Of a stretch of DNA of 64,000 nt, positions 13,066 through 51,309 are shown in pieces. Source of the stretch: Psammoneis japonica (lineage: Eukaryota). The position numbers and the translations under genes are program-made. The DNA is taken from contig QPGO01000022.1 of assembly GCA_008632985.1 (NCBI GenBank), forward strand, positions 496,001 through 560,000, read 5' to 3'. Within the stretch, counting starts at the first letter, position 1; each line of letters begins with the position of its first letter. The notes beneath the pieces were generated by a model. It was given only the letters and a program-made list of their open reading frames with translations. It was not told where the DNA came from and did not search any database.

Positions 13066-13341
13066 TGACAGAAAATGAAGGCAAATGGCAAGAATTCAAA
13101 CAATAACTCCTTACTGCTGTCTAAATAGCAGATGAGTCTCCGCTCAGAGACCGTTACAGGAGCCGAAAGACGTGTAAGTCGGTATAATCGGGCTACTGTT
13201 ATTATTCTTGTGAGCCTTGTGGCTCGAAAGCAAACTACATCGCGCGTGAACGCGCGGAACTAAAGCACACAAAACTGTGCACGGTAAACTAAACAGCGCG
13301 CGATACTTCGCGCGCACCTAAATCCTGTTCAAATCCTGTCA
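13066..13341 (-). repeat. 5' LTR of copia-1 (TpA-intact copy)
   Basis: Pair of 6234-6509. Retains 17 TpA sites. Confidence 0.97.
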
Positions 13342-22289: not shown

Positions 22290-23594
22290 TCACAGCCACT
22301 GAACAGCGTCCAAAAGGAACTCTCCAAACTCGCTCTCTTCTTCCTCGTCCGTCAAAAGGCAGGGGACGGATTCTTGTTGAGCCGCCCCAACGGAATGAGT
22401 TAGGACGTTGACCGGTGCCAACTTGATTTCCGGTAGCTTGATCTCTGTCGACTGGCAGGTATCCGGCCTGGTCGAGCCAGCAAACATGGAATCTTCAGGA
22501 AGGAGGGGTGCAGAAGCGTCACCAGTGATCTTCACTGCTGGAAATGGTGATCTTAGAGGTCATAATGACGACACTTGAGTAAGTATCGTCGCGACCGTGA
22601 GCGACAAGGACTGTCCACAATTTCAACCACTTGACTCGATCAGACCTGCTCCAACAAACGCAATGGCAGCCCTTCGCTTCAACCTCGACGCCCCAATGCT
22701 GTCGCAGCTTGTAGCAAGCTACCGCATTATTTAGAACAAACAGATGCTAGATCTGTGTTGTTGAGAGGATTGGTGGGGGCAATAAAGTGTCGAGATTTTA
22801 GGAAGGGGAAACCATGCGGTTGCGCGACTTGTCGATCGAGCACGTGGTAGATCTTGCAGAAAGCCTTGTCAGCATCATAGGGTATGAAATCTGTACTATG
22901 CTGGTAGAGAGATCAAATTGATTAAGTGCTGCTTCTCGCCCTCTTCCATGGAGAGTTGATGATGCTGGCCTTCGGTGGCTTGGAACCTGCCTGTGTCAAC
23001 AAGAGAACAAGACGCAATGGGTGAAACTGTGGGTGAGGCACGCGGGGACGCACTTGGTGTAGAGGACGGGGAGACGATCGTCTTTTGCACTACAATATCC
23101 GGGAGGGAGGAAGAAAGATTCTCTGGAGAGACGTCGTGGCTTTGCTCTAGGCTTTTGATCTTTTCCATCACGTCGTTGAACTTTAGCTTCCACTCTTCGA
23201 CCTCGGCTTCGAGCTCGACGATGCGGTCACGCTGACGCTGTCGCGACGCCGCTGCGCTCTCTCGATTCCTCTTGCGTCTCTGCTCCCTCCTCCACACGGC
23301 TGCCTCTTCTTTCGTCATTGGCACATCGGGATCGTATTTCATTTGAGGCTTCTTGGCCTTGGTCGTCTTCTTGGACTTGGCGACCAAGGTAGATCCCGTT
23401 TTGACGAATTCCTCTGAAACCTTCCGTTTCACACGAGGCGGCTCCGCGACAATCGACGAGATCACATCGGGCGTGGACTGCGCATGGTCTGGAACTGCAG
23501 AACCACGTTGTGTCGAGAGGATCTCACGCCGGCGCTTGCGTGCTAGCGCAGAGGAATCATTCATGTGTGGAGGAGGAGCAACAGCGGCTGTCAT
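22290..23594 (-). CDS. bZIP transcription factor; exon 1 23594-22901 and a C-terminal exon 22537-22290 (candidate HAC1/XBP1-like)
   Basis: Basic region RRKRNRESAAASRQRQR followed by a leucine zipper. The downstream ORF ends in acidic/hydrophobic EEEESEFGEFLLDAVQWL. The unspliced ORF stops at 22896. Confidence 0.85.
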
Positions 23595-27522: not shown

Positions 27523-27906
27523 AGTCCAAGGTCGAGGGGACTCCAAACAGACGATGCCACGGCTGTTTCGATAAATCGCTTCAGTAGGCTAGACACACTC
27601 TGTTTTGTGTACTCGTAGAAACTTTTAAATTGTGTCCTCCGTCAAATAAATCTTCCTACTGTACCTTTCTCCATGATCGCGACAACTCACGCAAATAAAA
27701 GTCACGGTGTGACGTGTGCTCGGTCGGTCCGCCTGCCGCCCGGCGGCCTGGCGTCTTGCGTTGATTTGGCATTTTTTTACCTGGTGTGGGCAAAGCTTTT
27801 TGATTAACTCGACTCGAGCGAAGCGAGAGTCAGCACGCCAAAGTAACCCGGATTTGAAAATAGACACAAAACCGCTCTCACACTTGCGTGAAGCACCCAT
27901 GTCACC

Positions 27907-30900: not shown

Positions 30901-32467
30901 GTGTTGAAGTTGGTTCGTCAATTGGTGGTTCAAGCCACCATTGAGTTTGATGCAGATGGCTGGCATGACATGACGAGATTCCTTGCCGACCATCGTGGCA
31001 TTGCTTCCATGGAGGACACACTTGACCACTTCTGCTTCAACCGAGAATTTTGGTGCCAGCGAGTCCAGACATGCCCCCCTGCCGCAAAGAAAGGAGCTGA
31101 CAACATTCGTGCTGTCCGGGACATGGTGCAATCTAATCCTGTCCTGAAAGAGTGCTGGAGTTCCAACCTGGAACAATGCTTCAACCGGTTGGAAGAAATG
31201 CACCAGAAAGGTCAACTCGAGGAATCTCGAGATGTGGCAATGCATCAGTGGGACGGCAAGGACAAGCATGGGTTGAATCTTTGGCTGCGTCAACGGGGAT
31301 CAAATCGGTCGGAGAATTTGCATCAGAAGATGCGGGTGGCGTTTGGACCCCATGGCATTGGTGCAAAGGTGGGGCACTTCTTGCTTCTCCTTGTCACGTG
31401 TCGACACAGTGTCAATGCTGGGGTGCGACGCAGTGGTTTCCATGACTTTGGCATGCCGCATCATGACATTGTTGATCGAATGCAACTTCGCATGACAAAG
31501 TTGTTTGCGTGCGATCCATTTCCCCATCACACCAACCAGTTGTTGTTTGAGCCAGCAAAGGATTTTGTTGCGGTTGGTGTGGGGCCATTAAATTATGATG
31601 CCAAGTTTGTTGAGCACCAAGACTCACCGGATCCCAAGCTCACAGGTGACTTGAAGTTTCTTGCTGGTGAGTGGCACCGTGCATTTCTTGATGACGTCGC
31701 TCTTGCAAATCTCACAGGAACGTTGCTCGGTCGCACTAGAACGCATGAAACTGAGAGGCCCCCCATTGCACATTAGCCATCCAAATGAAAAGCGAACATA
31801 CAATGATTTTCTAAAGGATCACCCGAAACCCACGTGGAAAACGTGGGTTGATTTGGCAAGCTTGTTCAAAATGAAAGCAGACTGTGTCACGATTTTTCCC
31901 AAGCTCCCTTCCATGCTCAAAAGCTGCTGCAACAAGTGGAAAGTCACACAGGAGTTGGTAATGCTCAAGGATTCTATTGGAGTGGACTGCTGTGGACTGT
32001 TAAAACAATTTGCTTGGCCAAGTCGGGAAGAACAGAACAAAAATCCGGCTGCTGTTTTTCAGAAAAATTCCAGCAAGCCCACCTTGGAGACAGCAGCAAA
32101 CGTGTTGGAGCAGACCATCACAGAGGCTGCATTCGACAATGATGATGCCATTTCCACCAACCCAATGCCAGTGGCACCATTGGTTGCTCCCACTCAAGCC
32201 ACCTGCATTGTCAGCGCCGACAAGGATGGACGCGGGGCAGACCGACGATGCTGCAGCGCCGCTCCTTTTGGATGCCCCAACCTTGCCAAGGACTGTTCAT
32301 GGCGGGGATGGCAACATTGCTCATTGGTCAAACGCAAGAGTGTTCTAGTGAATGCACCTGACTCAGAAGGGGAACGGAAAAGGTTGAAACGTGAGTGCAA
32401 CAAAAAGCGGTTGTCAGAGAGAATGGCAGAACTCAGAAAGAAGAAGGGAGCAGCAAGCAACAAGTGA
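27907..32467 (+). pseudogene. Transposase with inserted DEDDy 3'-5' exonuclease; introns about 29137-29211 and 31667-31739; in-frame TAA at 29350-29352; hypermutated
   Basis: Cys-rich Zn-finger region. DHSFK (first D), DRFH (DxxH) and RGSNRSENLH (E). Exonuclease motifs GIDSE, FDI and HAALD (expected YAALD) lie between the second D and DxxH. Confidence 0.75.
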
Positions 32468-32830: not shown

Positions 32831-32923
32831 CCACACTGTTTGACGACCTGCCGTTGATTTCGGTCGATTTGCGGTACATTCCGTTGCGATAACCACTCTC
32901 CTGAAGCCTCACAGTACAGTAAA

Positions 32924-33187
32924 ATGACAAGGCGGTCGGTCGCTGCATTGGCTAAGCAAGGCGGTCGCACTGTGGTACGGGATCCAAGAAAGAAGCGTCT
33001 TCCAACTGTTGTGCCGCAGGGGCCACCTTCCGAACAACAGCCAGCTCACCCCTGGAGACAACAAACACTTCCGTTTCAGCCTAGCGATCAAAATCAGCGT
33101 GCAGTAGGATCATCCTTGGGTTCTTACGTCTTAATGGGAGCTGGAGTCGCTATTGGATTCACATTGATCGGCGCAATATTTGGTTAG
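32924..33187 (+). CDS. Small (87 aa) protein with a basic N-terminus and a C-terminal Gly-rich TM helix; copy 1
   Basis: AAAATG start context. The ORF is conserved in the duplicate at 49155-49418. Confidence 0.65.
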   Translation: MTRRSVAALAKQGGRTVVRDPRKKRLPTVVPQGPPSEQQPAHPWRQQTLPFQPSDQNQRAVGSSLGSYVLMGAGVAIGFTLIGAIFG

Positions 33188-33439
33188 AATGTAGCTACTG
33201 ATCCCTCTTTGTTTGACACGGAAAACGGATGTGTGATGAACTACCGCTGTGGTACAAGGCATTAGAATGAGTGAATTTAATGTCTATTCGCCACATTATT
33301 TCTAAGTTATGATTGTTTGTATGTGGATCTTCCATTTGCTTCTCCAGCAGCACCTTTGCAGCAGTAACAAAACTTTGCAAAGGTAGCCTAGTCCCACGTT
33401 GTTGCTTTCAAGCAGTAGCAAAGTCGTCTCCATGGTGCT

Positions 33440-34520
33440 TCAACGATCTCCAAAACGAGCAAGCGCTCGGCCATGCTCGTCTTTATTGCTGATAAAAAGT
33501 TAATGTACCTCGATCCCATTGAGCTCTTATGCAGTCCCATCGCACGTTTCGATTCATCGGGATCCATAAAAGCAACGTACCCTTCCCCAGTTGCTCTTCC
33601 GTCACTTCGGTATGTGAGGACAATGGATTCCTCAATAATGTTGTAGTCCTTGAAGAAGTCCTCGATATCTTTCTTCGTTGAACTAAATGGTAGGCCTCTC
33701 ATTCGAAGATAGCCAGTGTGCTCCCCGACCTGGATACCACCCCCAGTTCTACGGGTCCCGACCCCGCCGCCACCGCGGCCGCTCCTAATTGTTTGCTGTG
33801 GCACAGCCCCTTTGCCTCGAGTACCAGTGTTCCCCATACCGGTATTGCTAGTGCTGGCACCTGTGTACCCCTCCGTTTCTCCCACCATCTGGGTGGCGCT
33901 TGGAAGCCCTGCCCATGACTGTGGGACCGCTTCTGAGGGTGCTAGTAGCGATTCTCCCATACCGGCCTCTCCAGCTTGTTGCTGTTCTTGCGAGTGTTGA
34001 TGCCAATGTTGCTGAAAGAAACGCAGAACATCGGAAATTGAAAGAACAAGCGTCAGCCACGAATAATAGAGTGAGTCGTACTCACGAGTGGAGCGTGGAA
34101 CACTCACCGCTGCAATCGCCGCATAGTAGTCAGAACGTTTCCCCTGTAGCACTTCGATAAAGCGACGACCAATGCTTTGGCGGTCCCTCTGCATGAAAGA
34201 AGCGGCGCAGAAGCAAGGTGTTTGAGACCGGCAGGCGTTTCCACGTCCAAAGATGCGACGTGACGTTCCTAAACGTACCGTTGCAGCGCCATCTGAAAAT
34301 CCATTGGATTCGCAAAGACAACAAAAGCCTCACCACCAACATGAAGAACAACATCAATAACAACGAGGCCTTGGAAAAATACAAGTACGTCCTCGAGAGT
34401 TACTTCAAACGGCAGACCACGCAGCCTCGCACAAGGGAATGGCCCAAGAACCGACTCCAGCGGATCCGTCGACGACCCGAGCCCCGGAAGACCAGGCGGC
34501 AATGGAATTCCGTCCATCAT
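33440..34520 (-). CDS. hnRNP F/H-like (qRRM) RNA-binding protein, copy 1; 1-bp deletion near the C-terminus relative to copy 2
   Basis: ARLRGLPF, LRMRGLPFS, GEAFVVF and GRATGEGYVAF motifs. AAAAGTTAATG here versus AAAAGTTCAATG in copy 2 shifts RYIELF out of frame. Confidence 0.8.
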
Positions 34521-34630
34521 CGCGCCGTGGAGGTGGAGATACCTGCGGTATAAACACAAACACAACGCAGACTATCGAAAGTCACGGTAGACTTCCAGCA
34601 CGCAGACTTGATGTGTCCTCGCCTGCCGTG

Positions 34631-35503: not shown

Positions 35504-35604
35504 TCTACAGGTGCCATTTCAGGTCAGACGGCCGGTCAGTGATGATGTGCGTCAGGGGGGTATACGGTAGCGTAATAGGGGACTAGCAAGCGCGCCGGCA
35601 TGGT

Positions 35605-36060
35605 TCGGACAAATTGACCAGGAGTTTATGGTGGGGGTCGATTTGTCCACTATCGATTTTAAGAACACGTAAACATGGGGTGGACAAATCTACCAGGAGT
35701 TTATGGTGGGGGTCGATTTGTCCACTATCGATTTTAAGAACACATAAACATGGGGTGGACAAATCTACCAGGAGTTTATGGTGGGGGTCGATTTGTCCAC
35801 TATCGATTTTAAGAACACATAAACATGGGGTGGACAAATCTACCAGGAGTTTATGGTGGGGGTCGATTTGTCCACTATCGATTTTAAGAACACATAAACA
35901 TGGGGTGGACAAATCTACCAGGAGTTTATGGTGGGGGTCGATTTGTCCACTATCGATTTTAAAAGAACACATAAACATGGGGTGGACAAATCTACCAGGA
36001 GTTTATGGTGGGGGTCGATTTGTCCACTATCGATTTTAAAAGAACACATAAACAAGGGGT
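35605..36060. repeat. 75-bp minisatellite, about 6 near-identical copies with internal dyad symmetry
   Basis: Units start at 35617, 35692, 35767, 35842, 35917 and 35994. GATTTGTCCAC/GTGGACAAATC and GTTTATG/CATAAAC are inverted pairs. Confidence 0.95.
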
Positions 36061-37741: not shown

Positions 37742-37828
37742 TTTGCTTGGTTTTCTGACGCAAAGCCAACTGTCATATTAAAATTTGATTATGCGTCGAC
37801 CTTTCCATGTCTCTGCACCCACAACTTC

Positions 37829-39479
37829 TTAATTATCCATTTCTCTAGACATACGAACTGCGCCTTCTGGTGATGCTGTTGAGCTTAGGGCAAAACAAAT
37901 TGCAGATATCAAATACCCTCCTACAACTCCTGTAGAGAGAAGATCTGACAAAGCAGCAGAAGAATCAGTATCAGATGATGTTGCCTGGCCGTAAAGAAAT
38001 CCAAGTAAGCTTGGTGCTAGATTTCCAATCGCTCCAGTAAGAGTAAAAAGACCTTGTGCAGTCCCACCGATGGTTGGACCGACTGCAGATTGCAGGACAT
38101 TAATGGTAGGACCAAACCATACCTCCGCGACCAGGTACTCTGCTGCTAACCAGATCATAGCAGTTTGAAACGATTCTACCGAATGAATTGACATGTACCA
38201 AGCTGGAGCGGCCAAGATGGACCCAACGACTGGGATCCACAACTTCTTTCCGGTGGGATCATCGCTATCGTGTAGCAGATGACACCCAGTCAGCCGCGAC
38301 TCCTCCCAACAAACCGCTAGTTATCCCGAAAGCAGAAGTGATGAAAGCTTGGGCAAATGCATAGTCGGACTCGTTGTCTGGAAACATCATTCGATAATAT
38401 GGTGCCGACCAAACTCCGATACAAAGACCGGAGCAAAAGCGAAAAAAACTTGCTAGAAACAGCCACTTGACCCTCGGCGATTCCATGACAGCCAGTACCT
38501 CATCAATAACAGATGACGAGGCCTCTTCTTGTTGAACCGTTTTCTCGTCGTTCTCTTCCACGAGCTTTGGGTCATTCGGCAGTAGAATTGTGGACAAGGC
38601 GCAAGACGCAACCCCAAACACAGCTATCGCTAACAAGGCATTGCGCCAACCCAATTGCGAATCCAACAGAACAGACAACGCAGCCAACCCCCCACCAAGG
38701 CTTACTCCGGTGAAATTTAGACTAGAGACTAGAGCTGCTCTTTCTTTTGGAACAAATTGAGCCAACAGCGTATAAGCTGTTGGCGTGGAAAAGGCACACG
38801 CCAAGCCCATCGCAATCCTCCACCCGACCACTTGACCGTACGACGACGAGAATGCTGTGCCGAGAGTTGCAACGGTCCATGATGCAACACTGACAATGGT
38901 AAGTACCTTTCGATAGGACCTATCGGATGCAACACCAGCAGCCAAAGAGGCGATAGCAAACAACGATGTAAAGGCCACCGAAGCCAACAATCCATACTGA
39001 GACTCGCTAAAATTCAAATCAACATTCATTGCGCGGAATGAGTCGACGTCACCGGATGAGAAATCAACCAGATAGTATATCGATGACCTACTCCACTGAT
39101 TTGACACATAGACCAGCCATAAAGGGAGAAGCAAGGACAGTATCCACGACCGCGACGTTGAATCCGGCTTAGCAGCATCGTCGAAATCATTACCATCTTC
39201 AGAAGAACCTTTTACCCAGAGGTTTGACTTCTTCGGGATCAACCCAACTCTTTGATAGAACACACCATGAGATGAATTCACCAAATTATCCTTAGGAGAA
39301 TCATTTGTCAGGAGGTTGAACCTACTCGGAATAAATCAATTGCGGCAACTTTGGGAGAACTTCTTGAAGGAATCGAAAATCGTCGCTGAGTGTACGAACG
39401 AAGCAACTGGTTCCAAGAGATGGCTTAGAAGCGCCAAAGTGAGTGCCACAGCCACTTGCAGAGACATGCAGTATTTCAT
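37829..39479 (-). CDS. MFS transporter (spinster-like), probably plastid-targeted; apparent 1-bp frameshifts near 38270 and 39340
   Basis: Multiple TM helices. MFS motif A-like GVASDRSYRK. Signal peptide MKYCMSLQVAVALTLALL..VASF. Confidence 0.8.
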
Positions 39480-39779
39480 TTCGAGCTGGAAGTGCTGTAT
39501 GCACACTATCGCATTGAACCAACGGCGGGCAACAGCTTTCTCAGGGTCGCAGCGTTCAGCTCACACCATCGTGGCTTGTGTCGGGAGGAGCGGAGGAGGA
39601 GTCGGATCGGTCGCGTACGCCGTCGCGTGTCGTTGCGGCTGGGAAGAAGCGTTTCACCACATTCAACGCAACGGTCACGAATCTGATCATTAAAAAGATT
39701 ACCCTGCAGGCCCTCTCTCTGCTGGCAGTGGTCGCAGAACTGGGGATAAGACTGCATAAAAGAAAGACTTGTAACATCG

Positions 39780-40003
39780 TGCGATAACTCTCGTCTGAGA
39801 GTCAGGGGAAGTCGACTGAGGTCGAGTAATGGATGTATCGCTAGCGAAGAGGGCCAACGATAACGGTATGATTGGTAAAGCTGCTAATGTCTTGTTACAC
39901 TAGATGTTGTAATTGTGAGAAAAGTTGAAAAAGACCGATGGCGGGAAATCGCATACGCAAGTGAGCGCGCGCGTATCGCGCATGAGTTCGTACTGTGTTG
40001 ACA
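39780..40003 (-). repeat. 3' LTR of copia-2 (TpA-intact copy)
   Basis: Aligns without gaps to 47245-47468 with 17 substitutions. Confidence 0.96.
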
Positions 40004-40009
40004 CTCCCT

Positions 40010-43000
40010 CTCGAACGAAGAAGCTGCCAACCGCAAAGCAACTTTCGAATAGCCTCGAATTTAACCGTAACGAGACCTTTAGTCAGAATATCAGCGCGTT
40101 GCAAGTCTGTTGCGATCTTGGACACAGTAACTCGATTTGGTTTGAGCTGTGAACGGAACCAATGACATTTGATTGCGCAGTGCTTGGACCTTGGCGTCAC
40201 TCGGCCAGGTTCCACATCAGCCAGAGTCAAAGCCCCAGCATTGTCCTCCCACACAGTGGTGCGAATGGTTTTGGTGGTCCCCAGACCAACTCCAATGCCT
40301 TGAGAGATGGCTTGTACAGTGCGCAGAAAGGGAAGGACAGTTTTCATGCAAGTGGAAAGAGCGTTGCACTCTGCTTCCATTGTTGAGAGAGCAATTTCAG
40401 GTGCAAGCTTGCTGGGCCAAACAACAGGACAGTTGGAAATGCAAACGACAAAACCTGTTCGGCTTTTGACACAAGCCGGGTCATGCTTGTCTTCGTGTGG
40501 CCACAGTCCAGCAAAATCTGAGTCAACAAACACGTCAATGTTGAAGTCCCCAGATGGCTTGAGGATCAAGCCTTCATCCAGAGCACCATTCAGGTGTCGA
40601 CCTGTCCGTTCAAGGGCTGGTTCATGCGAGTGACGAGGGCCATGAACAAATCTGGCTGCTGAGCTAACGGCGCAGGTGATGTCTGGCCTGGAGTGGCCTT
40701 GAAGATGTTGGAGCATGCCAACCACACTGGCACAATTGTGGGCTCCATTTGGTGGGTCTCCATCGGTGTCCTTGACCAACGGAGCGGCCAGTGCGGGCGT
40801 TCGGGCCTTTGGCAGATGGCCCACGTCAAGGGCTTCGACGACACGTTTGGACAAACCGCTCTGAGTGAGCTTGACAGCACCATTGTCGGTGTCGCGTTCG
40901 ATGTGGACCCCTGAAAAACCTGCGACGGAATCTTCAACTTCGATGGCCAGACCGCCATCAATTTTGAGTTTGTTGATCACTTCGTCAATGTGCTCTTGTT
41001 TCGGAGAGAAGAACAATGTGTCATCAACATGCACGAGGCAGATGACTTTGTCGGATGCAAACAAACACGGATCAACATCGTCTTGCGATTGAAATCCGGC
41101 GTCTTCGAGTTTTGACTTGAGGTGCAGGAAAAAGTTACGAGGTCCTTGCTTGAGACCATGCACGGTCCGTTTGAGTTTCAGCACTTTGCCGGGCTTGGTG
41201 CATCCGCGAGGCATCTGCACAAAGATGCCAGAGCGTTCTCGCTCTTCGGGTGTCATGGTGTCCCATTTGGGATCCTTGTCAATCGGAGCATGGACGAAAG
41301 CGGTGACATGATCAACTTGTTTCGTCGACAGTTCCAAAATTTGAGAAAGTGTGAGCACAAGCCGTGCGGTCGTCCAATTGACAACTGGAGCAAAGGTGTC
41401 AAAGCAGTCGACACCTTCCAATTGCTTGTCTCCACGGACGCAAAAGCGGGCTTTACATTTGCGGATCGACCCATCAGGGTGTCGTTTGCACTTGAAGGCC
41501 CAAGTGGATGGTAAGACGTTCATCCAATCTTGGCGGTCTGCTTCTTCCCAGGCGTCTTTGCCTTTGACTAGAGAATCGATTTCGACGTCGCAAGCTTTCA
41601 GACAAGCTGCTCGATCAGGACCATTCATTGCTTCTTCCCAAGTTGGATTGTCAGCGGAATTTGCATTCGCTGCGAGGGCAAGAGGGTGCATTTCTTCGAG
41701 TGTTCCGTGAACTTGATCGGTGTTTTTGTTGAAAAGGTCAAGCATTGCGCGCAAATCTTTAGACCGGAGTGCATTTGTGATGCTGTCCCAACGCAAGGCC
41801 ATCAAGAACTGTTTGTTCAGTGTTTCTGACTTGACAGTGCGTTTGGGATTCTTGCAGGCATTCGGCAACTCGTTGGGCGGAATGCGGATGTCGGCATGCA
41901 TGGCTTCGATCAAGCGTTCCGGCTTCTTGACGGAACGACCGCTTCGAGTCCGAGTGGGTGGTGTGGCAGCATTCGGAGCAGGTTGAGGTTGCTCAGCTTC
42001 GGCAGGACCCAGGTCGAGGTCTTCAGGTGAGTCGTGATGATCGACAAGCGACAATTCGTCGTCGCTGTCATCGCTGAACTCATTGATCTCGACTCCCTCT
42101 GGAGCCTCTGAAGTTGCAGATTCTAGATCGTCAGCAGATGATTCAGGCAATGTGGGAAGTGAAGTGACAATTCGTCGTCGCTGTCATCGCTGAACTCATC
42201 GATCTCAACTCCCTCTGGAGCCTCTGAAGTTACAGATTCTAGATCGTCAGCAGATGATTCAGGCAATGTAGGAAGTGCTCCCTCTGGAGCTGTGACGGAA
42301 GAGGTTGAAGGAGGGACGGCGGGAGGGGCTGTTTTGGAGTTTTGAAGATGACGTTGACGGGGGTCGTGTCGAAGATTAGCGTGATGACGGCGCTCTGCGG
42401 GTGTCAACCAATCATTGTGTAAAGCCGGCAAGTGACGGCAAGGGTCATCGGCTGTGTCGGAAGGCTCAGGCGGAGCATTGTGTGCCAGCGAGTTGGCGGT
42501 GAGGAGGGATTCCCAAAGGTCGGCAGTGAAGGGAACACCCTGGAAGAAACCGCCAGAGTCGCCATTGGGCACTGTTGCAAAGTGGTCATTGTAGACCACG
42601 TGATGCTGAGGACTAACGTGGCCCATCGAGAGATTCAAAATGAGGCCAATGTCAGTTGAATGATCCGGTGAGATGCCGAGATGTTGGCCACGGCGACTCC
42701 TGGGGTCCCACTTGGGTGGTTTCTTTCCGTCTTGTAACTTGGGATCAAGAACACATGCAGGGCAACCCCACACTTGTAAGCGCTGCAGGTGCGCACAGGT
42801 GTCGAAGCGTTGCTTGGAAAAAATTCGACCGGCGCGGTACGAGTGTCAGACTTCGGGACATGGTTCCACAAGTGGGTCGCATGGGTCATGGCAAAAGGCC
42901 ACAACTCAAGGTTGGCGGCATCAGGCCACATGAGAATGGCGTGCAGGAGCACAGCTCGTGCCCATGAAGTGATGGTTTGGATGGAGCGCTCGGCTGCGCC

Positions 43001-44094
43001 GTTCTGATGATGAGCGCCAACACCAGAAAAATCAACAGTCTGGTTGTTTTCTTCTGGGTCGTCCATGAAAGCCTTGGTGCCAAACGGGACGTTGTCAGCA
43101 AGGTGGGACTTGATGCGGACCCCAAATTGGTCACTAAGCTGCTCGAAGGATCACTTGGCACGAACAGTTTCACCTGCGGTGAGACCAACTTGATGGGTCA
43201 GACAGACGCAGGCAGAAGCATGATCAACAAAAATTGTGCCTCCACAACACTTGTCTTTCTTGGGTTCGCGTCCCTTGGACGTCGGAAGACGGCCAGGGAC
43301 ATGGCTGATGTGCTGATCAACGGAGACGCGTTGACCAGGCGCCAAATCTCCCTGTCGCAAAGTCAACGGCGGATGATTGGAGGTGCCGCGACGGTCAGGT
43401 GTTCGTCGTTTCTGCTTTGCGAGTTGACAGGCAGCACATGAAGGTGCAGTGCAACTGGAGACGGCTTGTGTTGAAGGCTTGACAATGTGGGATTTGGTGG
43501 GATCCCGTGGTGTTGCACACAAGCATTGAATGTGTTGGAAGCCGGCATGACCAAGTTTCTGATGGAGTGAGAGAAGCTCCTTCTGGCCGGGTGTTAGATT
43601 CTGATTGGTCTGAGAAGCAACTGAAAGAAACGAAGTGAGGCGTGCTTTGGTGCTGACGGGAGCCAAATTGCATTGTGTGACTCCGGCTGAGATTGGTTCG
43701 GACATCATCACAAAAGGCAAGTTGTTTTCTTTGTTGCACGGGAACTCGAGTGCATCCCCTTTCAGAAGAGTGAGGGTTGCTTTGTTTCCTCGTACACGAC
43801 ATTCACCTTGGTTTCCATTCTCTTGAAAACAGGCTTGTGGGCTAAAGAGTCGAATGGAAGCGTCGGGAACACAGTGGGCTCGCGTTCGGACGGTCCGGAT
43901 ACATTCCAACAATCGATTGCGTCCCATTCCACGAAACCTTGACCAACTGCTCGGGTGCTGGAGGACAATCCGTTGATGGCAGTGGTGCCAACGGGTTCCA
44001 GCGGTCCTGTAAAGTCACTTGAGTGGGGTGTGAGCGACGAAGATGCTCCTGTGTCAAGAACAATGGGTGCGTCAACAGGCAAGCACGATGTCAA
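40010..44094 (-). pseudogene. copia-2 pol (protease, GAG-pre-integrase, integrase, RT, RNase H), broken into several frames
   Basis: VLDTGAS, HQKLGHAGF..C..CQLAK, HQNGAAER, WGCPACVLD, KARFCVRGD, VHGLKQ, LVHVDD (expected YVDD), FVDSDFAG and QRADILTKGL motifs. Confidence 0.92.
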
Positions 44095-45182
44095 TGCTTG
44101 ACATTGGCGGCCTTGAGATCTCTTGCATCATTGAAGGATTTGACATGCTGCGTTGGATCGTCGGTCAACCATGGTGGGTCCGACTCGGATGCAGCAACGT
44201 GAGATGGACCTGTCATGGTCTGGTGAGAGAACACAGCCACTCCACCGAAACCACTCGTAAAGGTTGCTGTTGTCGTGCGTGACAGGTCAGTTGCGATGCA
44301 AGAGAGCATCGGCGCTTGACCACAAGCTCGCAACATTTCGGAAGAGGCAAGTGTTTTGATCAAATGGAGCTGTTCTAAAGGATCAATGCCTTGAACAAAT
44401 TCGTCTGACGAATGACCGCACTGCATGTCGCACATGATCCAGGTTTGGTGTAACAGTCGGTGCTTGATGCGGTAGAACTCTTCCAGTTCGGAAGCTTCAG
44501 GGTCGTCTGGAGGTGCAAAAGGTGAGGGCTCCGTTCGTGTCGCGGAGCTACGAGGTTTGGTCCTCAGGCAGTCACCTGGAGGATCAAGCAAAGTGACGAA
44601 ATCAGTTAAAGTCGCACCATGAGGAAACTCGTACATCTCGGAAGGCAGATGCAACAGGCGATGTTTGATTTGAGAATGGGCTTCTGTGGCCTCTTGTTGA
44701 GGATCGACGCAGGCAAATCTAGGTGGTCTCGTTTTCCTGGGTTTGAATTGACGTCTCGATCTTGAGAGTTTCCACGACTTGGATTTTCGACAGGAGCGAT
44801 CCGGATCGGCTGCCGTTGTGTTGTCCGGAACAGGCGTTCGGCGCTGTTTACGCCAAGTCGTTGGATGAAGGAAGGACCACAAGGGGTCTCTGCTTGGGAT
44901 TCGAACTGAGCGCCGATCCAAGCGGCGAACCTGAGAATGATGTGTCATCCGAGTTCGATCAGGAGGACGACGAAATGAGGTCAGTTCGAAAGTGGGAACA
45001 ACAACAAAGTCGGGAAGATCGTCGTATGAAAGCGAAGGATTCTTGGAAAAGAGAAGCAAGCAGAACAAAAATCCACCTGCCAAAACAAACAGCAACTGAC
45101 AAATCGACGAAACTGCTTCGATCCCTCCCTCTCCAAGAATCTGGAGAGTGAACCACAGGAGCAAAAAGTGACCAACCGACAA
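44091..45182 (-). CDS. copia-2 ORF between gag and protease with two N-terminal hydrophobic segments
   Basis: 363-aa ORF. FLLLWFTLQIL and ICQLLFVLAGGFLFCLLLFS segments. Duplicated IKHRLLH motif. Confidence 0.5.
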   Translation of the reverse strand: MSVGHFLLLWFTLQILGEGGIEAVSSICQLLFVLAGGFLFCLLLFSKNPSLSYDDLPDFVVVPTFELTSFRRPPDRTRMTHHSQVRRLDRRSVRIPSRDPLWSFLHPTTWRKQRRTPVPDNTTAADPDRSCRKSKSWKLSRSRRQFKPRKTRPPRFACVDPQQEATEAHSQIKHRLLHLPSEMYEFPHGATLTDFVTLLDPPGDCLRTKPRSSATRTEPSPFAPPDDPEASELEEFYRIKHRLLHQTWIMCDMQCGHSSDEFVQGIDPLEQLHLIKTLASSEMLRACGQAPMLSCIATDLSRTTTATFTSGFGGVAVFSHQTMTGPSHVAASESDPPWLTDDPTQHVKSFNDARDLKAANVKH

Positions 45183-45275
45183 ATGAGCCTGGATGTCCCT
45201 TCCAGGAACGGACGGTTGGTTGAAAAGGAAAGAAGAGGGGGCTGCACGCTCAGGAGAGGAGGCGCGCCCGAAGCT

Positions 45276-46765
45276 TCAGGTGAAGGAGGCGAAGAGGCCG
45301 GACACAGTTTTGACCATCTCCTTCTTGGCATTGGCAATGGCGAGGTCCCGATCCGTGACGGGAGCGGAAGCCGGTGCCGGAGCGGGCGCAGCGGCCGGAG
45401 TGGGAGAAGGTGCAGCGGCAGGAGCGGAGGCAATGTTCCCCGTCTCAGTCACCGGGCGCCAGCGCTTGGTTTTGCAATGACAGCAATGATCCTCACCATC
45501 GATGTTGCGGTGACTGTTGTTGTTCTTTTCGGCTTCAGTCGGTGGCTGCCATTTCTCAGGAATGGGTTTGGCAGAGGGACCGGAAGAGGAGGATCCCGAA
45601 GAGTTGTTCTTGCGTTGAGCTTGTTTCGCGTCAAAGAAGAGCTTCTTGTCAGCACGAACACGAGCGTCGTCGACCGGTGTCTTGCAGTTGGACAAAGAAT
45701 GAGGGCCGCCACAGTTAAAACAAGTGATGACTCCCGCAACGAACGAAGTTGCTTGTTTCTTGGCAGACACGCCGGACCACTTGTCGGAGGAGACAAGAGC
45801 GAGACACTCGCCTTCGGCAAAGGATAAAATGTCATCCACCGCAGCAGTCGTTGCAGCAGTCGTCGAGCCCGATTGCTTGAGTTTGGAGGTCTTGGAGTCC
45901 TTGGCAAGGTGCTCGAAGAGAGAATTGAACTCGGGAACACTCGACGTTTGAAAGACTTTGGCGAGATTCTCCAGAAAATCAGTGGGAATGACAGACTGTC
46001 CTTTCTGATCCTGGAGATTAGTGAGGCGAGAACAGCCACCGCGAATGAGAGATGCAACTTTGCTTGCGTCTTCTCCATCGAAGTCAGTGATCTTGAGGTT
46101 GGTTGTGTTGGAAACCAAACAACGAGCAGCCTCTTCGGAGTTGCTCTGAAGGAGTTTCATCATGAGAACGAAGAAAAGAGGTCCGCCCTGTTCTTCCTGA
46201 TCACATTTGAGGTGCGTCTGTTGACTTTCTTCTGCAGTGCAATGGACGCGTTCCGCTCGAAGCAGTCGTGAGTAAGACGAAGGTTTTGGCTCGCCCAAGT
46301 CCCATCGGGGTCCTCGAGCATGGTTGAATGCCATTTGTTGCTTGCGGCGACCTCCGTTGCGGTGATCGTGGAGTGTTCCTTGTAAAGATCGCGCGTCGTG
46401 AATTTATCCGGGTCGATGATGGTGAAGACGTCATCCATGTCATGCTTGACATGGTTCGAACGCATGGTTGAAATGGACATCGCGAGGTCACAAGCATCCT
46501 CGAGCTTGTCAGGATCGTTGATGTTGACGTTGAGGAGGTCAAATTTTGTCTGCTGTTTCGAAGTCGCCTTCAGAAAGAGATCGTTGAGCTTGTCAGGATC
46601 CAGCCTGTTCCTCTGCTCCTCAGTGTAGAGGGCAGCAAGAGTGTCTTGCGACGCTTTCGGCATCGCGCGCACTTTCACCTTCCGTCCATCAATGGTCACC
46701 TCGGACATGCTGGCTGGCAGAGAAGGAGGGAGTGGAATGCTCGCTGCTTTGCTCGGCATGCGCAT
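45276..46765 (-). pseudogene. copia-2 gag with CCHC zinc knuckle (frameshift near 46210)
   Basis: CFNCGGPHSLSNC. ORFs 46160-46765 and 45276-46334 overlap at a frameshift. Confidence 0.85.
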
Positions 46766-47130
46766 TACGCAAGAAAGCGCAGATTCTTCGGATGACGGTT
46801 GGTTGAATTACCGCCATCCGTGCGGATGTGTGCATGTTGTTCTGCAATGCAAAAGACAGTTGCTTGACGGTCTTGGACAGCAACGGAGCATCGAAAGTTC
46901 CGGATTTCGTTAGTTGTGACGACTCGGTCGCCCACACGAAAATCCGCGACGGTTGGCTCCCGTGTGGTTGAAGTAGAAGTGCGAGCGGTTCCGGCTCGCG
47001 TTGTCGCAGCAAGGCGATTCTGCCGTTCTCTTTCCGCGGCAATGCGACGAACAAGCTCTGCTTCTTGAAGTTGCAGGGCTTGCAGTTGTTCAACAAGGTC
47101 GTCAAGTGTCGCAGAGTTCCTTTCGGACAT
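46765..47130 (-). CDS. copia-2 small upstream ORF (coiled coil plus KOW/SH3-like FRVGDRV motif)
   Basis: About 121 aa. Its stop codon overlaps the next ATG (TAATG at 46763-46767). Confidence 0.55.
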   Translation of the reverse strand: MSERNSATLDDLVEQLQALQLQEAELVRRIAAERERQNRLAATTRAGTARTSTSTTREPTVADFRVGDRVVTTNEIRNFRCSVAVQDRQATVFCIAEQHAHIRTDGGNSTNRHPKNLRFLA

Positions 47131-47230
47131 GTGCAACACTCACGTAGAATTGCATGCAAAGAATGTGTGGAGCTCACTTCTCGTCCACCGGAGAGAAAGA
47201 GATGAGCGCAGGAGTGATCAAGCGTGACAC

Positions 47231-47244
47231 TTGGGCTCCTAACC
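47231..47244 (-). other. Primer-binding site of copia-2, complementary to the 5' half of initiator tRNA-Met
   Basis: The - strand reads GGTTAGGAGCCCAA right after the 5' LTR, one mismatch from GGTTATGAGCCC and close to the half-tRNAiMet PBS of Drosophila copia. Confidence 0.8.
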
Positions 47245-47468
47245 TGCGACAACTCTCGTCTGAGAGTCAGGGGAAGTCGACTGAGGTCGAGCAATGGATG
47301 TGTCGCTAGTGAAGAGGGCCAACGACAATGGTGTGATTGGCAAAGCTGCCAATGTCTTGTTGCACTGGATGTTGCAATTGTGAGAAAAGTTGAAAAAGAC
47401 CGATGGCGGGAAATCGCGTGCGCAAGTGAGCGCGCGCGCATCACGCATGAGTTCGCACTGTGTTGACA
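47245..47468 (-). repeat. 5' LTR of copia-2 (TpA-mutated copy)
   Basis: 13 of the 14 TpA sites in the sister LTR are CpA/TpG here. Confidence 0.96.
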
Positions 47469-47473
47469 CATCG

Positions 47474-48960
47474 TGGTGCTTTTCTAGAAGTGAGATCCAA
47501 ACCTGAGGCACCGCTTTGCGCCAAATCGCCAATGACACAGCACACTGAACCAACTTGAATGGATCACATGGTGAATTCTAAATTCTTCAGTCCCCTCAAG
47601 TCGATGAACTGAACAACGAGTCGGCTTGACCCAACTTGCTCTCCAGCCACATTTGATCACTTCAACATGACAAGGGAACCCTGGCAACCTGCACCAAAAA
47701 CCCCAAAAGGGGCAAAAGGGAACCGGGTGTGAAAGACAACTGGTCTTCACAGATGTCGTGGGGAAGATCATCATCCCCACAAGTCCACCTCACTTCATGC
47801 CGCCACACATGATCTTGGCTGTGAGATCCACCAGATTGAATTCCAAACACATGTGTCCAGTGAGTGACTCGCCCATTGACACCAACTCCCTCATGGCGTG
47901 GCGGCAAACAGAGTTTGACTTCTTCTTCAAAGTGGACTCTGGACTCTGCGTGTTGTGGATGGCTGGCATGTTGTCCCCACAGATGCAGGATGGACCAGTC
48001 AATGGCATGCCCATCATCCTCAACTTGTGTCCCAAGCTGTGCAAAGACTCCATTCCTTGCTTCATGGCTGCAAACTTGGCTCCAAAAACCATGCAGATGA
48101 AGAAGCCGGTGTGTGAGTGCCTCATCAACTCATCATTTGCATGGTCCAAGTCAATGAATGAGTGCAGATCTGCCTTCAAGCCCAGAGGTTCTGGTGCATT
48201 GGATGAGATTGCTTCCTGCATGTCCCCACAAAATGACTTCCAGCTGCATTCCTTAAAGTCAGAAGTGTCAATGTGTTGGGATGTGTCAGGTCAAACACCA
48301 ACCTGGCATTGTGTCTTGCCTTGAGGCAGCCACACACATGGAGTGCAGCTGCGAGGTGACCCTCCCTGGGCATGGCAAGAAACAAGGCAAGCTTGGAAAC
48401 CTCAATTGTCAGATCAACACAACCAAGTTCTGCTGTCCATCGCAGGACGCCTGCCTGTGACTGGTGGGGCTGGGCATCTTCTGCTTCAAGCTCAGGCAAC
48501 ACATCCAACTCAGGACAACAATCCCATCACTCACAACCACAGGTCCATTGAGGAAAATTGCTTCAGAAGCACGACACATGTCATTGGCAGGAGCATCAAA
48601 GTCCACAGTGGAAATGCCAAATTGACTCGTGATGCCCGCATGCAAGGATGTGATGCAAATGCACAACAGATTTTTCCATTTCTGGTGTCCCACTTCGCCT
48701 TCATGGCCCACGCTCTGTCGGAACATGCATCGTCAGAAATGGATTCAAAAGGAGCATTCAAAGTGACTTCACAACTTTCCCGTGCATGGAGAAACATTTG
48801 AAAGTCTGTTTGAGATGAACACGTGGACACTTCAATCACGTTTCCATTGCCCGCTGCACTGCACCACACTCCGCGGTGCGTCACATCGGCTCCATTGATG
48901 CCATCAAAGGTGTGTTGCATTGCATTGATCATGTGTCCCACTCATGTGGGACCATTCAAG
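47474..48960 (-). mobile_element. Old copia relic (RT C-terminus and RNase H), TpA- and CpG-depleted
   Basis: GVLRW..ELG.VD...EVS, PREGHL, CGDNM and ESTLKKKSNS motifs in ORFs 48176-48508 and 47790-48221. Confidence 0.85.
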
Positions 48961-49154
48961 ACTGATGGTTCCGCGTCTGCAACAGTGGACTTCTAGCACG
49001 CAGACTTGATGTGTCCTCGGTCGGTCCGCCTGCCGCCCGGCCCATTGACAAGCTTGCCAAAGGGTCAAAGGGAGCTTGCGTTGATGTGATTTCAGTCAAT
49101 TTGAGATTTGCGCTGCGATGACAACAACTGCCTGAAGCCTCACAGTGCAGCAAA

Positions 49155-49418
49155 ATGACAAGGCAGTCGGTCGCTGCATTGGCCAAGCAAGGCGGTCGCA
49201 CTGTGGTGCGGGATCCAAGAAAGAAGCGTCTTCCAACTGTTGTGCCGCAGGGGCCACCTTCCGAACAACAGCCGGCTCACCCCTGGAGACAACAAACACT
49301 TCTGTTTCAGCCCAGCGATCAAAATCAGCGTGCAGTAGGATCATCCTTGGGTTCTTACGTCTTAATGGGGGCTGGAGTCGCCATTGGATTCACGTTGATC
49401 GGCGCAATGTTTGATTAG
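49155..49418 (+). CDS. Small 87-aa TM protein, copy 2 (carries TpA/CpG substitutions)
   Basis: Paralog of 32924-33187 with R4Q, P->L, I->M and G->D changes. Confidence 0.6.
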   Translation: MTRQSVAALAKQGGRTVVRDPRKKRLPTVVPQGPPSEQQPAHPWRQQTLLFQPSDQNQRAVGSSLGSYVLMGAGVAIGFTLIGAMFD

Positions 49419-49677
49419 AAGTCAAAATGTAGCTACTGATCCCTCTTTGTTTGACACGGAAAACGGATGTGCGATGAACTACCGCTGTGGTACAAGGCAT
49501 TAGAATGAGTGAATTTAATGTCTATTCGCCACATTATTTCTAAGTTATGATTGTTTGTATGTGGATCTTCCATTTGCTTCTCCAGCAGCACCTTTGCAGA
49601 AGTAACAAAACTTTGCAAAGGTAGCCTAGTCCCACGTTGTTGCTTTCAAGCAGTAGCAAAGTCGTCTCCATGGTGCT

Positions 49678-50758
49678 TCAACGATCTCCAAAACGAGCAA
49701 GCGCTCGGCCATGCTCGTCTTTATTGCTGATAAAAAGTTCAATGTACCTCGATCCCATTGAGCTCTTATGCAGTCCCATCGCACGTTTCGATTCATCGGG
49801 ATCCATAAAAGCAACGTACCCTTCCCCAGTTGCTCTTCCATCACTTCGGTATGTGAGGACAATGGATTCCTCAATAATATTGTAGTCCTTGAAGAAGTCC
49901 TCAATATCTTTCTTCGTTGAACTAAATGGTAGGCCTCTCATTCGAAGATAGCCAGTGTGCTCCCCGACCTGGATACCACCCCCAGTTCTACGGGTCCCGA
50001 CCCCGCCGCCACCGCGGCCGCTCCTAATTGTTTGCTGTGGCACAGCCCCTTTGCCTCGAGTACCAGTGTTCCCCATACCGGTATTGCTAGTGCTGGCACC
50101 TGTGTACCCCTCCGTTTCTCCCACCATCTGGGTGGCGCTTGGAAGCCCTGCCCATGACTGTGGGACCGCTTCTGAGGGTGCTAGTAGCGATTCTCCCATA
50201 CCGGCCTCTCCAGCTTGTTGCTGTTCTTGCGAGTGTTGATGCCAATGTTGCTGAAAGAAACGCAGAACATCGGAAATTGAAAGAACAAGCGTCAGCCACG
50301 AATAATAGAGTGAGTCGTACTCACGAGTGGAGCGTGGAACACTCACCGCTGCAATCGCCGCATAGTAGTCAGAACGTTTCCCCTGTAGCACTTCGATAAA
50401 GCGACGACCAATGCTTTGGCGGTCCCTGTGCATGAAAGAAGCGCGCAGAAGCAAGGTGTTTGAGACCGGCAGGCGTTTCCACGTCCAAAGATGCGACGTG
50501 ACGTTCCTAAACGTACCGTTGCAGCGCCATCTGAAAATCCATTGGATTTGCAAAGACAACAAAAGCCTCACCACCAACATGAAGAACAACATCAATAACA
50601 ACGAGGCCTTGGAAAAATACAAGTACGTCCTCGAGAGTTACTTCAAACGGCAGACCACGCAGCCTCGCACAAGGGAATGGCCCAAGAACCGACTCCAGCG
50701 GATCCGTCGACGACCCGAGCCCCGGAAGACCAGGCGGCAATGGAATTCCGTCCATCAT
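49678..50758 (-). CDS. hnRNP F/H-like (qRRM) RNA-binding protein, copy 2 (intact); introns at about 50245-50340 and 50430-50515
   Basis: Two qRRMs (ARLRGLPF..GEAFVVF..RFIEV and LRMRGLPF..GEGYVAF..RYIELF). Normal stop codon at 49678. Confidence 0.88.
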
Positions 50759-51309
50759 CGCGCCGTGGAGGTGGAGATACCTGCGGTATAAACACAAACA
50801 CAACGCAGACTATCAATGGATATGCTTCAAACTCACAGGCTGCAACAACAATGAGGTCATCTGTTGGAACGGGGCGTTGGCCCCACGCCAGCGTGCTCCT
50901 CTCCACAATTTTTGGCTTCCTGCCGCTCCTCCCGATCATGCTTCTTTTCACGCCGGGCCCACGGGAACGACCAGTAAAACAACTACGTACGAACAACCCG
51001 CGTAAGGAACGTACGGACAGTCAAATCAAAAGTCGCGCCATCGAAACGATGCGTTACGTACAACCACCAACGAATAAGTAAATGTGAAAAACAAATTATT
51101 CAACTTCGAATAAATATTACGGCAGGACAGTCGTGGATTTCGTAAGTGATGAGTAGAAATCAACGCAGAACACTTATCAAAATATTCATATACAGCATTG
51201 AATGACTAATTCTCAGATTTATGTCAACATGTTCTCGAGCTCTGCGAGCTACAAAAAACACGAAAGCCATAGTCTGTCCACCCACCCGCAAAAAATCGCA
51301 GCGACGAAA

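Follow-up and report, generated by a model that had tools for sequence, protein, structure and literature searches.

One-sided loss of TpA from the long terminal repeats of two unrelated copia elements in the diatom Psammoneis japonica

In the genome of the diatom Psammoneis japonica, two unrelated copia elements have each lost TpA dinucleotides from one long terminal repeat (LTR) and retained them at the other end, and the spared end is the 3' LTR in one element (copia-2) and the 5' LTR in the other (copia-1). The two LTRs of a retroelement are identical at insertion. The twin LTRs thus form a built-in control: equal in sequence and age and 7 kb apart, they have met opposite fates. The change arose after insertion, on both strands, specifically at TpA and away from TA, and its borders ignore the limits of the elements. 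A DNA-level mutator that converts A to G with a preference for TAY probably covers silent chromatin and spares promoter and transcribed zones. The window analyzed here is the whole 64,000-nt stretch of contig QPGO01000022.1 (assembly GCA_008632985.1, positions 496,001-560,000, forward strand), and all coordinates are positions within it.

Structure of copia-2 and its flanks

The copia-2 element and its surroundings comprise the following features:

37793-39479, minus strand: MFS transporter gene of the host, probably starting at the ATG at 39479, which lies 300 bp from the 3' LTR
39691-39779, minus strand: probable gene-side remnant of an older relic; 5 TpA in 89 bp; X1 loose end at 47468; left end provisional
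39775-39779, no strand: left target duplication CATCG; identical 5-mer at 47469-47473
39780-47468, minus strand: copia-2 element, with LTRs and an intact 5-bp target duplication
39780-40003, minus strand: 3' LTR, spared; 14 TpA, 19 CpG
40004-40012, minus strand: putative polypurine tract adjoining the 3' LTR, from its sequence and position
40004-40134, minus strand: 3' tail of pol, for the most part spared, with 6 TpA (46/kb versus 6.6/kb in the body)
40024-40026, minus strand: CAG at the place where homologue C-termini predict a stop for pol; a TpA was probably lost here, within the spared tail
40027-42183, minus strand: RT-RNase H frame (RVT_2); 1 Tyr in 762 aa, catalytic YVDD now HVDD
40135-47244, minus strand: hypermutated body of 7110 bp with 47 TpA left and CpG retained at 63/kb
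42046-42277, no strand: internal tandem duplication of 116 bp whose copies differ at 5 sites, 2 of them TpA
42231-44073, minus strand: protease/integrase portion of pol, spread by frameshifts over three frames, from tblastn of homologues
47225-47244, minus strand: primer-binding-site-like stretch, by position directly after the 5' LTR
47245-47468, minus strand: 5' LTR, hypermutated; lost 13 of 14 TpA and 3 of 19 CpG
47469-47473, no strand: right target duplication CATCG, matching the left 5-mer
47469-48980, minus strand: older copia relic with remains of RT/RNase H, almost free of TpA; right end approximate

The architecture is that of a Ty1/copia element, with direct 224-bp LTRs that have TG...CA ends, a 5-bp CATCG duplication, an RVT_2 domain (PF07727, E=1.6e-22), and an integrase part ahead of RT-RNase H (homologue residues 264-873 at 44073-42231 and 863-1541 at 42102-40027). 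The right LTR is identified as the 5' LTR by the minus-strand pol frame, the purine tract at 40004-40012, and the primer-site-like stretch beside 47244. We take the stretch at 47225-47244 to resemble the half-tRNA primer sites of copia-type elements, and the protease and integrase labels are presumptive, drawn from motifs in the homologue consensus.

Contigs of two sequencing runs, X1 and X2, were compared with the 32-51 kb interval. The element seems to be nested in the older relic, which would then adjoin both LTRs, since four X1 contigs run left past 47468 into sequence like the left flank (agreement 0.73, by eye). The earlier note had set the mutated 5' LTR beside a relic; that LTR is indeed the mutated one, but the relic appears to touch its spared twin as well. 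The flanks of the insertion match no other relic in the window. CpG density in the older relic is 26/kb beside the insertion versus 8/kb further out (p=0.014), as expected if a protected zone fixed to the MFS gene predates copia-2. One X2 contig covers the MFS gene (37788-39534) and ends short of the 3' LTR; it lends no support to LTR-driven MFS transcription, and contigs cannot show transcription starts. X2 contigs also leave the body of copia-2 uncovered, and such absence of cover is no sign of silence.

Mutation spectrum of the copia-2 LTRs

An exact recount reproduced the tally first noted for this element: the 224-bp LTRs differ at 17 sites, 13 of which are TpA losses (8 TA>CA and 5 TA>TG), and the sole survivor of the 14 TpA, in the right LTR, lies within CTAG. 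All 13 losses are confined to the 5' LTR (sign test p=2e-4). Elsewhere in the LTR, differences occur at 1/89 other A/T sites and 0/69 non-CpG C/G sites (Fisher p=2e-14). The remaining four sites had been described as CG versus TG/CA. This holds for three of them, at which the 3' LTR has CG, lost from the LTR that was also stripped of its TpA (3/3 clear sites). At the fourth, LTR position 174, the 3' LTR carries A rather than CG; since other family copies in run X1 have the same A (loose end at 39967), an A>G change in the 5' LTR is the probable origin of this difference. Change in the 5' LTR is much faster at TpA (13/14) than at CpG (3/19) or at all other sites (1/158). LTR divergence amounts to 7.6%, and at most one of the 17 differences lies at neither TpA nor CpG. 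Transversions are absent from the LTR pairs of both elements. Both strands are mutated (8:5 in the LTR; 10 His and 8 Cys in the body).

The earlier note also held that the 3' LTR and about 140 bp of pol keep their TpAs. The 14 TpA of the LTR and 6 in the pol tail are retained, the latter where the rate of the body predicts 0.87 (p=3e-4), and a hidden Markov model (HMM) places the boundary between spared and depleted DNA at 40135 (5-95%: 40089-40198). However, the tail probably lost its stop codon at 40024-40026. The pol C-terminus bears GW in 110/120 homologues, and among 71 metagenome loci GW is followed by a stop in 41/41 matches (TAA 24, TGA 14, TAG 3).

Direction and sequence context of the change

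A comparison of two sequences has no direction, and the same LTR differences could in principle come from a process resembling repeat-induced point mutation (RIP) that added TA to the seemingly spared LTR at CA/TG. This reading has virtually no chance of being correct. In the homologue alignment of copia-2, His or Cys now stands at 18/21 conserved Tyr columns; in copia-1, 52 such columns comprise 37 His or Cys, 9 Tyr, and 6 other residues. The reverse change, from His or Cys to Tyr at conserved columns, was found at 0/30 and 0/46 in the two elements, and reverse polarity was rejected on this ground. In addition, the TA-rich LTR lies near genic TpA density, against 6.6/kb in the body. The neighboring MFS gene has His or Cys at 0/13 conserved Tyr and keeps Tyr at 12/13. 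X1 copies restore TA at 4 of the 8 listed differences from copia-2 inside the element. As fixed by comparison with homologues, the direction of mutation is away from TA.

Loss of TpA depends on the flanking base (p=5e-7), with relative rates of 0.11 for TAA, 0.30 for TAG, 1 for TAC, and 1.32 for TAT, a strand-wise preference of TAT >= TAC > TAG > TAA. Once context is fitted there is no overall strand bias (p=0.56), and in copia-1 the sense strand carries a weak excess of changes (factor 1.8; two-factor model p=0.06).

An unrelated element spared at the opposite end

The second element, copia-1, and the DNA beside it include:

6234-13341, minus strand: copia-1 element of an unrelated family; target duplication GACCC, conserved Tyr columns largely turned into His or Cys
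6234-6509, minus strand: 3' LTR, mutated; lost 11 of 17 TpA
12569-13333, minus strand: spared island of 765 bp, the 5' LTR and about 500 bp of leader, with depleted DNA around it
13342-17467, no strand: block of old relic DNA separating copia-1 from the following host gene; 2.9 TpA/kb and 10 CpG/kb

The two families were said to be unrelated, and the pol proteins, 22% identical, and a single 16-bp blastn match (E=0.046) bear this out. Also as claimed, the mutated LTR of copia-1 is the 3' one: all 11 TpA differences between its LTRs are losses there. With 6/17 TpA remaining, all six of which are present in the 5' LTR too, this 3' LTR falls short of the saturation seen in the copia-2 5' LTR, although the corresponding difference at Tyr columns (37/46 versus 18/19) is not significant (p=0.26). 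TpA density is 71/kb in the island versus 6/kb around it. The right edge of the island coincides with the edge of the element and is uninformative on the shape of the zone. No tRNA or Rfam family in the window explains the island. A sigma-70 promoter scan, inapplicable to a eukaryote, found nothing.

Position of the borders

Of the seven main TpA boundaries, five are 356-656 bp away from the start or stop codon of a host gene. The spared zone at 39.5-40.1 kb spans host upstream DNA, the probable relic remnant, the LTR, and pol. Mutation also extends beyond retroelements: copy B of a duplicated host segment is changed at 8 of its first 12 TpA, and a non-retro block at 27.9-32.5 kb is TpA-mutated.

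The earlier note had argued that targeting depends neither on the replication cycle nor on LTR sequence. Both points stand, since one twin lost 13/14 TpA on both strands while the other lost none, and the opposite LTR is mutated in an unrelated family. The positive part of its argument, targeting by position or chromatin, gains indirect support from the boundaries near host genes and from the zone that crosses element limits. Its contrast between a relic side and a gene side is not borne out as a complete rule: depleted relic flanks copia-1 at both ends, and the spared one lies 4.5-5.3 kb from the nearest host ATG. Distance to a gene was rejected as a sufficient rule, and a test built on it would fail on copia-1, which it would misclassify.

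Proposed mechanism and alternatives

The probable course of events is that chromosomal DNA in silenced domains would be mutated after insertion, A to G at TpA on either strand, yielding TG or CA. The target would be the silent chromatin domain, in which active transcription units, promoters above all, are holes. The 3' LTR of copia-2 may have been spared by landing in protected DNA upstream of the MFS gene, and the 5' LTR and leader of copia-1 may be its own putative promoter, still open. The chemistry could, speculatively, be adenine deamination by a TadA/ADAT2-like enzyme of the kind proposed for Bigelowiella. Recoding of Tyr to His or Cys and loss of stop codons would disable the element with its frames unbroken. 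Several findings count against this account: the copia-2 5' LTR would have been silenced despite a spared twin identical at insertion, whereas the copia-1 5' LTR escaped; the probable stop codon loss at 40024-40026 implies leaky protection; one A>G falls outside TpA; the skew is absent from the LTR pairs of 71 metagenome loci; and 14 relatives from Nitzschia inconspicua are free of Tyr>His/Cys.

The same positional targeting with another chemistry, either oxidized T mispairing with G or an error-prone polymerase in methyl-cytosine mismatch repair, is rather unlikely. TpA and CpG losses do share an LTR and the old blocks, and A>G in TAY is indistinguishable from T>C in RTA from sequence alone, but TpA loss far exceeds that of CpG and is seen where CpG has been preserved (63/kb in the body). 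For a sloppy polymerase the record is too clean, with zero transversions in the LTR pairs and 1/89 other A/T sites changed. Protection by host genes only, over about 350-650 bp, is unlikely; it accommodates five of the seven boundaries, and would ascribe the copia-1 island to another cause, for instance a domain that has not yet spread over it or recent 5' gene conversion by an unmutated family member. The lower saturation of copia-1 (11/17 TpA, and the Tyr columns with p=0.26) agrees with this, but the island is sharp, takes in only the 5' LTR plus leader, and shows no partial loss, all 6 TpA left in the 3' LTR being found in the 5' LTR.

Very unlikely is a mosaic origin of the spared ends, by recombination or conversion between hypermutated and unmutated alleles or copies, or by an assembly that joined them. 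X1 family copies are about 10% diverged with transitions both ways, no read or contig spans the element, and activity of the Bigelowiella natans process in only 11/15 lines (10.64898/2026.01.13.699255) implies that unmutated alleles can coexist. On the other hand, the target duplications are intact in both elements, the spared zone runs past the target duplication into the probable relic remnant and host DNA, the spared tail itself seems to bear a TpA loss, and boundaries recur at similar distances from genes. Editing within the retroelement cycle, ADAR-like on RNA or by a deaminase on cDNA, is hardly credible and was rejected, being contradicted by one-sided LTR pairs with intact target duplications. 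A>G after T does resemble ADAR preferences (as given in 10.64898/2026.01.13.699255), and the sense-strand excess of copia-1 leans the same way. Yet reverse transcription gives matching LTRs, ADAR or APOBEC editing would be strand-specific and common to both, and here both strands of one LTR are mutated, as is non-retro DNA. With opposite ends spared in two unrelated elements, RNA editing, reverse transcription, and homology drop out as explanations.

Comparison with known systems

The closest precedent for a silent-chromatin mutator of TpA, and the sole description of the signature that was found, is a preprint on B. natans (Mettrop et al., 2026 bioRxiv, 10.64898/2026.01.13.699255), whose available text leaves the guide unstated. 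It describes TpA-only hypermutation of silent, integrated NCLDV and virophage DNA, proposes an ADAT2-like deaminase, allows transposable elements as potential targets, and reports enrichment of TE-type Pfams among TpA-poor coding sequences. The process is ongoing and line-specific, at about 1000x the background rate in mutation-accumulation lines. Its target is single-copy, so that homology is dispensable there (10.64898/2026.01.13.699255). The P. japonica changes are alike in being regional TpA to TpG/CpA transitions in genomic DNA, restricted to TpA (13/14 versus 1/89 other A/T sites), on both genomic strands (8:5 in the LTR, 10:8 at Tyr codons), and not triggered by homology alone, one twin LTR being spared per element. 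They differ in occurring in a diatom rather than a rhizarian; in affecting copia elements, relics, and part of a duplicated host segment rather than viral inserts of 25-186 kb; and in near saturation as against mild depletion (rho 0.45). In the available text of the preprint, in which a rate was measured, no sub-element borders or flanking-base preference beyond TpA are reported, and the words diatom, LTR, retrotranspos-, promoter, and boundary are absent. No report of TpA hypermutation in diatoms was found in the literature.

RIP in ascomycete fungi, which is C>T creating TpA, is duplication-triggered and affects both copies. It too inactivates genomic transposons through hypermutation of a specific dinucleotide. 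The polarity here is opposite, TpA being removed rather than made by C>T at CpA, and the changes fall in a single LTR (13/13 and 11/11) rather than in both copies. Transposable elements of Phaeodactylum are covered by repressive histone marks. Diatom Ty1/copia (CoDi) elements, which copia-2 resembles in its LTR structure and RVT_2, are also CG-methylated there by DNMT5 (PMC9998398). In mouse ETn/IAP elements near promoters, the two LTRs are differentially methylated and the promoter-proximal LTR is unmethylated (Rebollo et al. 2012, PMC3491417). As in that account, a promoter environment would shield the LTR next to it and leave its partner to be silenced, but mammalian methylation is reversible, and here the sequence is changed permanently.

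It is possible, though tentative, that diatoms have a chromatin-guided adenine-deaminase defense related to that of Bigelowiella, perhaps SAR-ancestral, which saturates silenced TpA before neutral divergence and is excluded from active promoters, the element's own 5' LTR included. The TpA map would then preserve past chromatin state permanently and base by base, with spared LTRs marking elements that still transcribe or lie inside host promoters. If the TpA border is a methylation or accessibility border, diatoms have a RIP-like defense of opposite chemistry; ages read from LTR divergence (7.6% here) would be badly inflated in such genomes, and a natural TAY-preferring DNA adenine mutator would still be to be found.

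Named relatives of copia-2 come from Cylindrotheca closterium and Nitzschia inconspicua. Unlike copia-2, 89/120 relatives have no His or Cys at the 21 conserved Tyr columns, and a N. inconspicua cluster has 0 Tyr>His/Cys in 14 members. Among the 71 metagenome loci, which served as the sample for replication outside the window, 15 have direct repeats more than 3 kb apart (16 alignments), none with more than one TpA-type difference. Many direct repeats in those 15 loci look like identical assembly overlaps. Low observed/expected TpA in two loci (L024, 0.21; L049, 0.35) is not convincing. At 19 conserved Tyr columns, His or Cys occurs once in 10 of the 71 loci, twice in 4, and at no column in the other 57.

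TpA differences between paired LTRs

The right-hand repeat of copia-2, a minus-strand copia element at 39780-47468, is its 5' LTR because the pol frame runs leftward and this repeat adjoins a primer-site-like stretch, with a purine tract beside the opposite LTR.

39780-40003 and 47245-47468, minus strand: copia-2 LTR pair, a direct repeat with target duplication CATCG

The two copies differ at 17 of 224 sites (eight TA to CA, five TA to TG, and four CG versus TG or CA). Counting confirmed the earlier note's 13 differences at TpA and its survivor in CTAG: there are 14 TpA in the left LTR and only that one in the right. All 13 losses lie in a single LTR (p=2e-4); the other A/T sites differ at 1 of 89 positions, and the non-CpG C/G sites at 0 of 69 (p=2e-14). 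Of the four sites described as CG, three lost a CpG in the 5' LTR; at the fourth, the 3' LTR reads A, as do four contigs from sequencing run X1 (loose end at 39967). The fourth site is probably an A-to-G change outside TpA, and all 17 differences can therefore be derived in the 5' LTR.

In copia-1 (6234-13341, minus strand), all 11 TpA differences between the LTRs are losses in the 3' LTR. The opposite LTR is thus mutated in the two elements, as had been claimed, and their pol proteins, 22% identical, bear out that the families are unrelated. TpA loss is post-insertion, affects both strands, is TpA-specific and domain-like, and ignores both element limits and the identical twin.

Direction and sequence context of the changes

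Conserved tyrosine columns of copia-2 are those with Tyr in at least 60% of 120 homologues (n=21); in copia-2, 10 of them are His, 8 Cys, 2 Phe, and 1 Tyr, and its catalytic YVDD reads HVDD. The 52 such columns of copia-1 hold Cys (28), His (9), Tyr (9), and others (6). No conserved His or Cys column has turned to Tyr in either element, and the MFS gene, a host transporter gene (37793-39479, minus strand) beside the copia-2 3' LTR, retains Tyr at 12 of 13 conserved columns, with His or Cys at none. Among the differences listed between X1 and the window (40 of 2420), four of the eight inside copia-2 are TA in X1 for CA or TG in the window. Judged from this one-way Tyr replacement and the X1 letters, TA is the ancestral state at the changed sites.

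Across three repeat pairs, the changed fractions per strand are TAT 9/13, TAC 11/20, TAG 5/15, and TAA 1/20; a fit with Tyr codons added gives relative rates of 1.32, 1, 0.30, and 0.11, respectively (context p=5e-7). The low TAG rate accounts for the CTAG survivor. Strand has no overall effect in the fit (p=0.56); opposite biases of the two elements (1.8 and 0.57) are only a hint (p=0.06 against none). Once context is corrected for, the excess of Cys over His in copia-1 gives a slight hint of a sense-strand bias; despite heavy recoding, this element keeps a single open frame of 1994 codons (6457-12441) reaching into its 3' LTR. The copia-2 body has 63 CpG but 6.6 TpA per kb, and TpA loss therefore runs well ahead of CpG decay.

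Speculatively, the chemistry would be adenine deamination by an ADAT2/TadA-like enzyme; chemistry centred on T instead of A is also possible from the sequence. An engineered TadA editor shares the preference for TAC/TAT and disfavours 3' purines; the likeness is weak, because its authors ascribe this preference to their selection substrate (10.1101/2025.05.14.653640).

Surroundings of copia-2

The pol tail next to the 3' LTR keeps 6 TpA in 131 bp versus 0.87 expected (p=3e-4). A C-terminal GW is present in 110 of 120 pol homologues, and a stop codon follows the motif in 41 of 41 matches from 71 metagenome loci, TAG being the least frequent stop (3/41). The window has CAG at this place (40024-40026), one step from the rarest stop; loss of the pol stop codon by TpA change is therefore probable, not certain. 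The tail had been described as spared, which agrees with the six retained TpA but not with this probable loss.

The 5' LTR had been taken as the end adjoining the relic, older copia remains flanking the element. However, left of 47468 four X1 contigs continue with a sequence similar to the left flank (0.73 agreement, by visual comparison), ending in CTTGCA where that flank has CTTGTA. Copia-2 thus seems to be inserted inside the relic, with relic pieces on both sides. TpA number 5 in 89 bp of the gene-side piece and 2 in 532 bp of the far-side piece. The relic keeps 14 CpG in the 532 bp adjoining the insertion and 5 in the 620 bp beyond (p=0.014), which fits a protected zone anchored at the MFS gene and older than the copia-2 insertion. 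On the minus strand, 47590-47600 is a purine stretch with TG after it, which may be the polypurine tract and the start of the 3' LTR of the relic itself; in that case copia-2 would lie within this LTR.

Boundaries and host genes

A two-state HMM gave seven main TpA boundaries, leaving out a 394-bp low segment (23150-23543). Five are close to host genes, whose landmarks are reading frames, Pfam matches, and homologues rather than transcripts. Three of the five precede a start codon: 17468 by 361 bp, 32458 by 466 bp, and 40135, at the MFS gene, by 656 bp. The other two follow a stop codon, 27894 by 372 bp and 49324 by 356 bp.

The omitted segment, a CpG-rich stretch among genes with 3 TpA, is probably a composition effect. 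TpA is kept in a tandem array of about six 75-bp units (35524-36050), and repetition alone is therefore no attractant.

A contig of run X2, which is filed as DNA yet has GT-AG joints, spans the MFS gene (37788-39534), which hints weakly at transcription of this gene. Named relatives of the MFS protein, from Seminavis, Cylindrotheca, Nitzschia, and Epithemia, identify the host as a diatom. Over this interval the X1/X2 allele differs from the window by about 4% (70 substituted letters and 21 gaps over 1730), exceeding the divergence of neighbouring genes. The MFS N-terminus (39420-39479) resembles a signal peptide with an ASF motif at its end, like those of diatom plastid-targeted proteins; there is a similar one at 17829.

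Another block is poor in TpA:

27894-32457: third TpA-poor block, 8 TpA/kb, with long frames of 486 and 807 aa on the plus strand

The 807-aa frame has a 3'-5' exonuclease domain (PF01612), and the block resembles a DNA transposon of no assigned class. The 35-bp motif at 27710-27744 has a further copy at about 49007-49041 and an altered one near 34610. Two genes, a small one on the plus strand and an RRM gene, are duplicated at 32855-34576 and 49087-50814 (97.5% identical). Copy B starts about 70 bp before the ATG of the small gene, and 8 of its first 12 TpA, up to 49408, are changed (seven to TG/CA, one at a gap).

Targeting

The paired LTRs are valuable as an internal control and restrict the targeting cue to position, as the earlier note proposed; sparing of the LTR nearest a gene is inadequate as a rule, given copia-1, which has TpA-depleted relic on both sides and whose spared part is an island.

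12569-13333: copia-1 spared island (5' LTR and leader), bounded by two HMM boundaries, 4.5-5.3 kb from the nearest host ATG

Sparing of promoter or transcribed zones is the better formulation. The target domain would be silent chromatin from which such zones are left out: the MFS promoter zone would save the copia-2 3' LTR, and the element's own putative promoter the copia-1 5' end. Conversion or incomplete spreading is a possible alternative source of the latter; no tRNA or Rfam match was found in the island. In line with silent chromatin as the target, Phaeodactylum LTR-copia elements carry CG methylation and repressive histone marks (PMC9998398). In mouse, one LTR of a pair can be methylated and the other, near a promoter, remain free of methylation (PMC3491417).

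Known systems and occurrence elsewhere

The process works like RIP but shows neither RIP hallmark: C to T at CpA, which creates TpA, or mutation of both copies of a duplication. The mutation signature is common to a Bigelowiella natans preprint, whose available text makes no mention of diatoms, LTRs, promoters, or boundaries; no report of TpA hypermutation in diatoms was found in the literature searched. The window pattern is real and, as far as the available preprint text goes, a variant of a process described once before.

Against generality, none of 71 metagenome copia loci has a TpA-skewed LTR pair, and none of 14 N. inconspicua relatives shows Tyr to His or Cys. Recoded copia proteins from ENA count for it: P0095 (9 of 21 columns), P0067 (6 of 21), and P0199 (14 of 52). 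Among 97 substitutions in the 11-member P0067 cluster, Tyr to His (12) and Tyr to Cys (7) are the two commonest, with 5 in reverse. These proteins and P0040 may reflect the TpA process in other assemblies; P0040 is very low in Tyr (0.8%), yet only 2 of 21 columns are recoded. Two metagenome copia loci are weak candidates, with low observed/expected TpA: 0.21 in L024:1-1693 (CpG 0.54) and 0.35 in L049:1-7247 (CpG 0.45).
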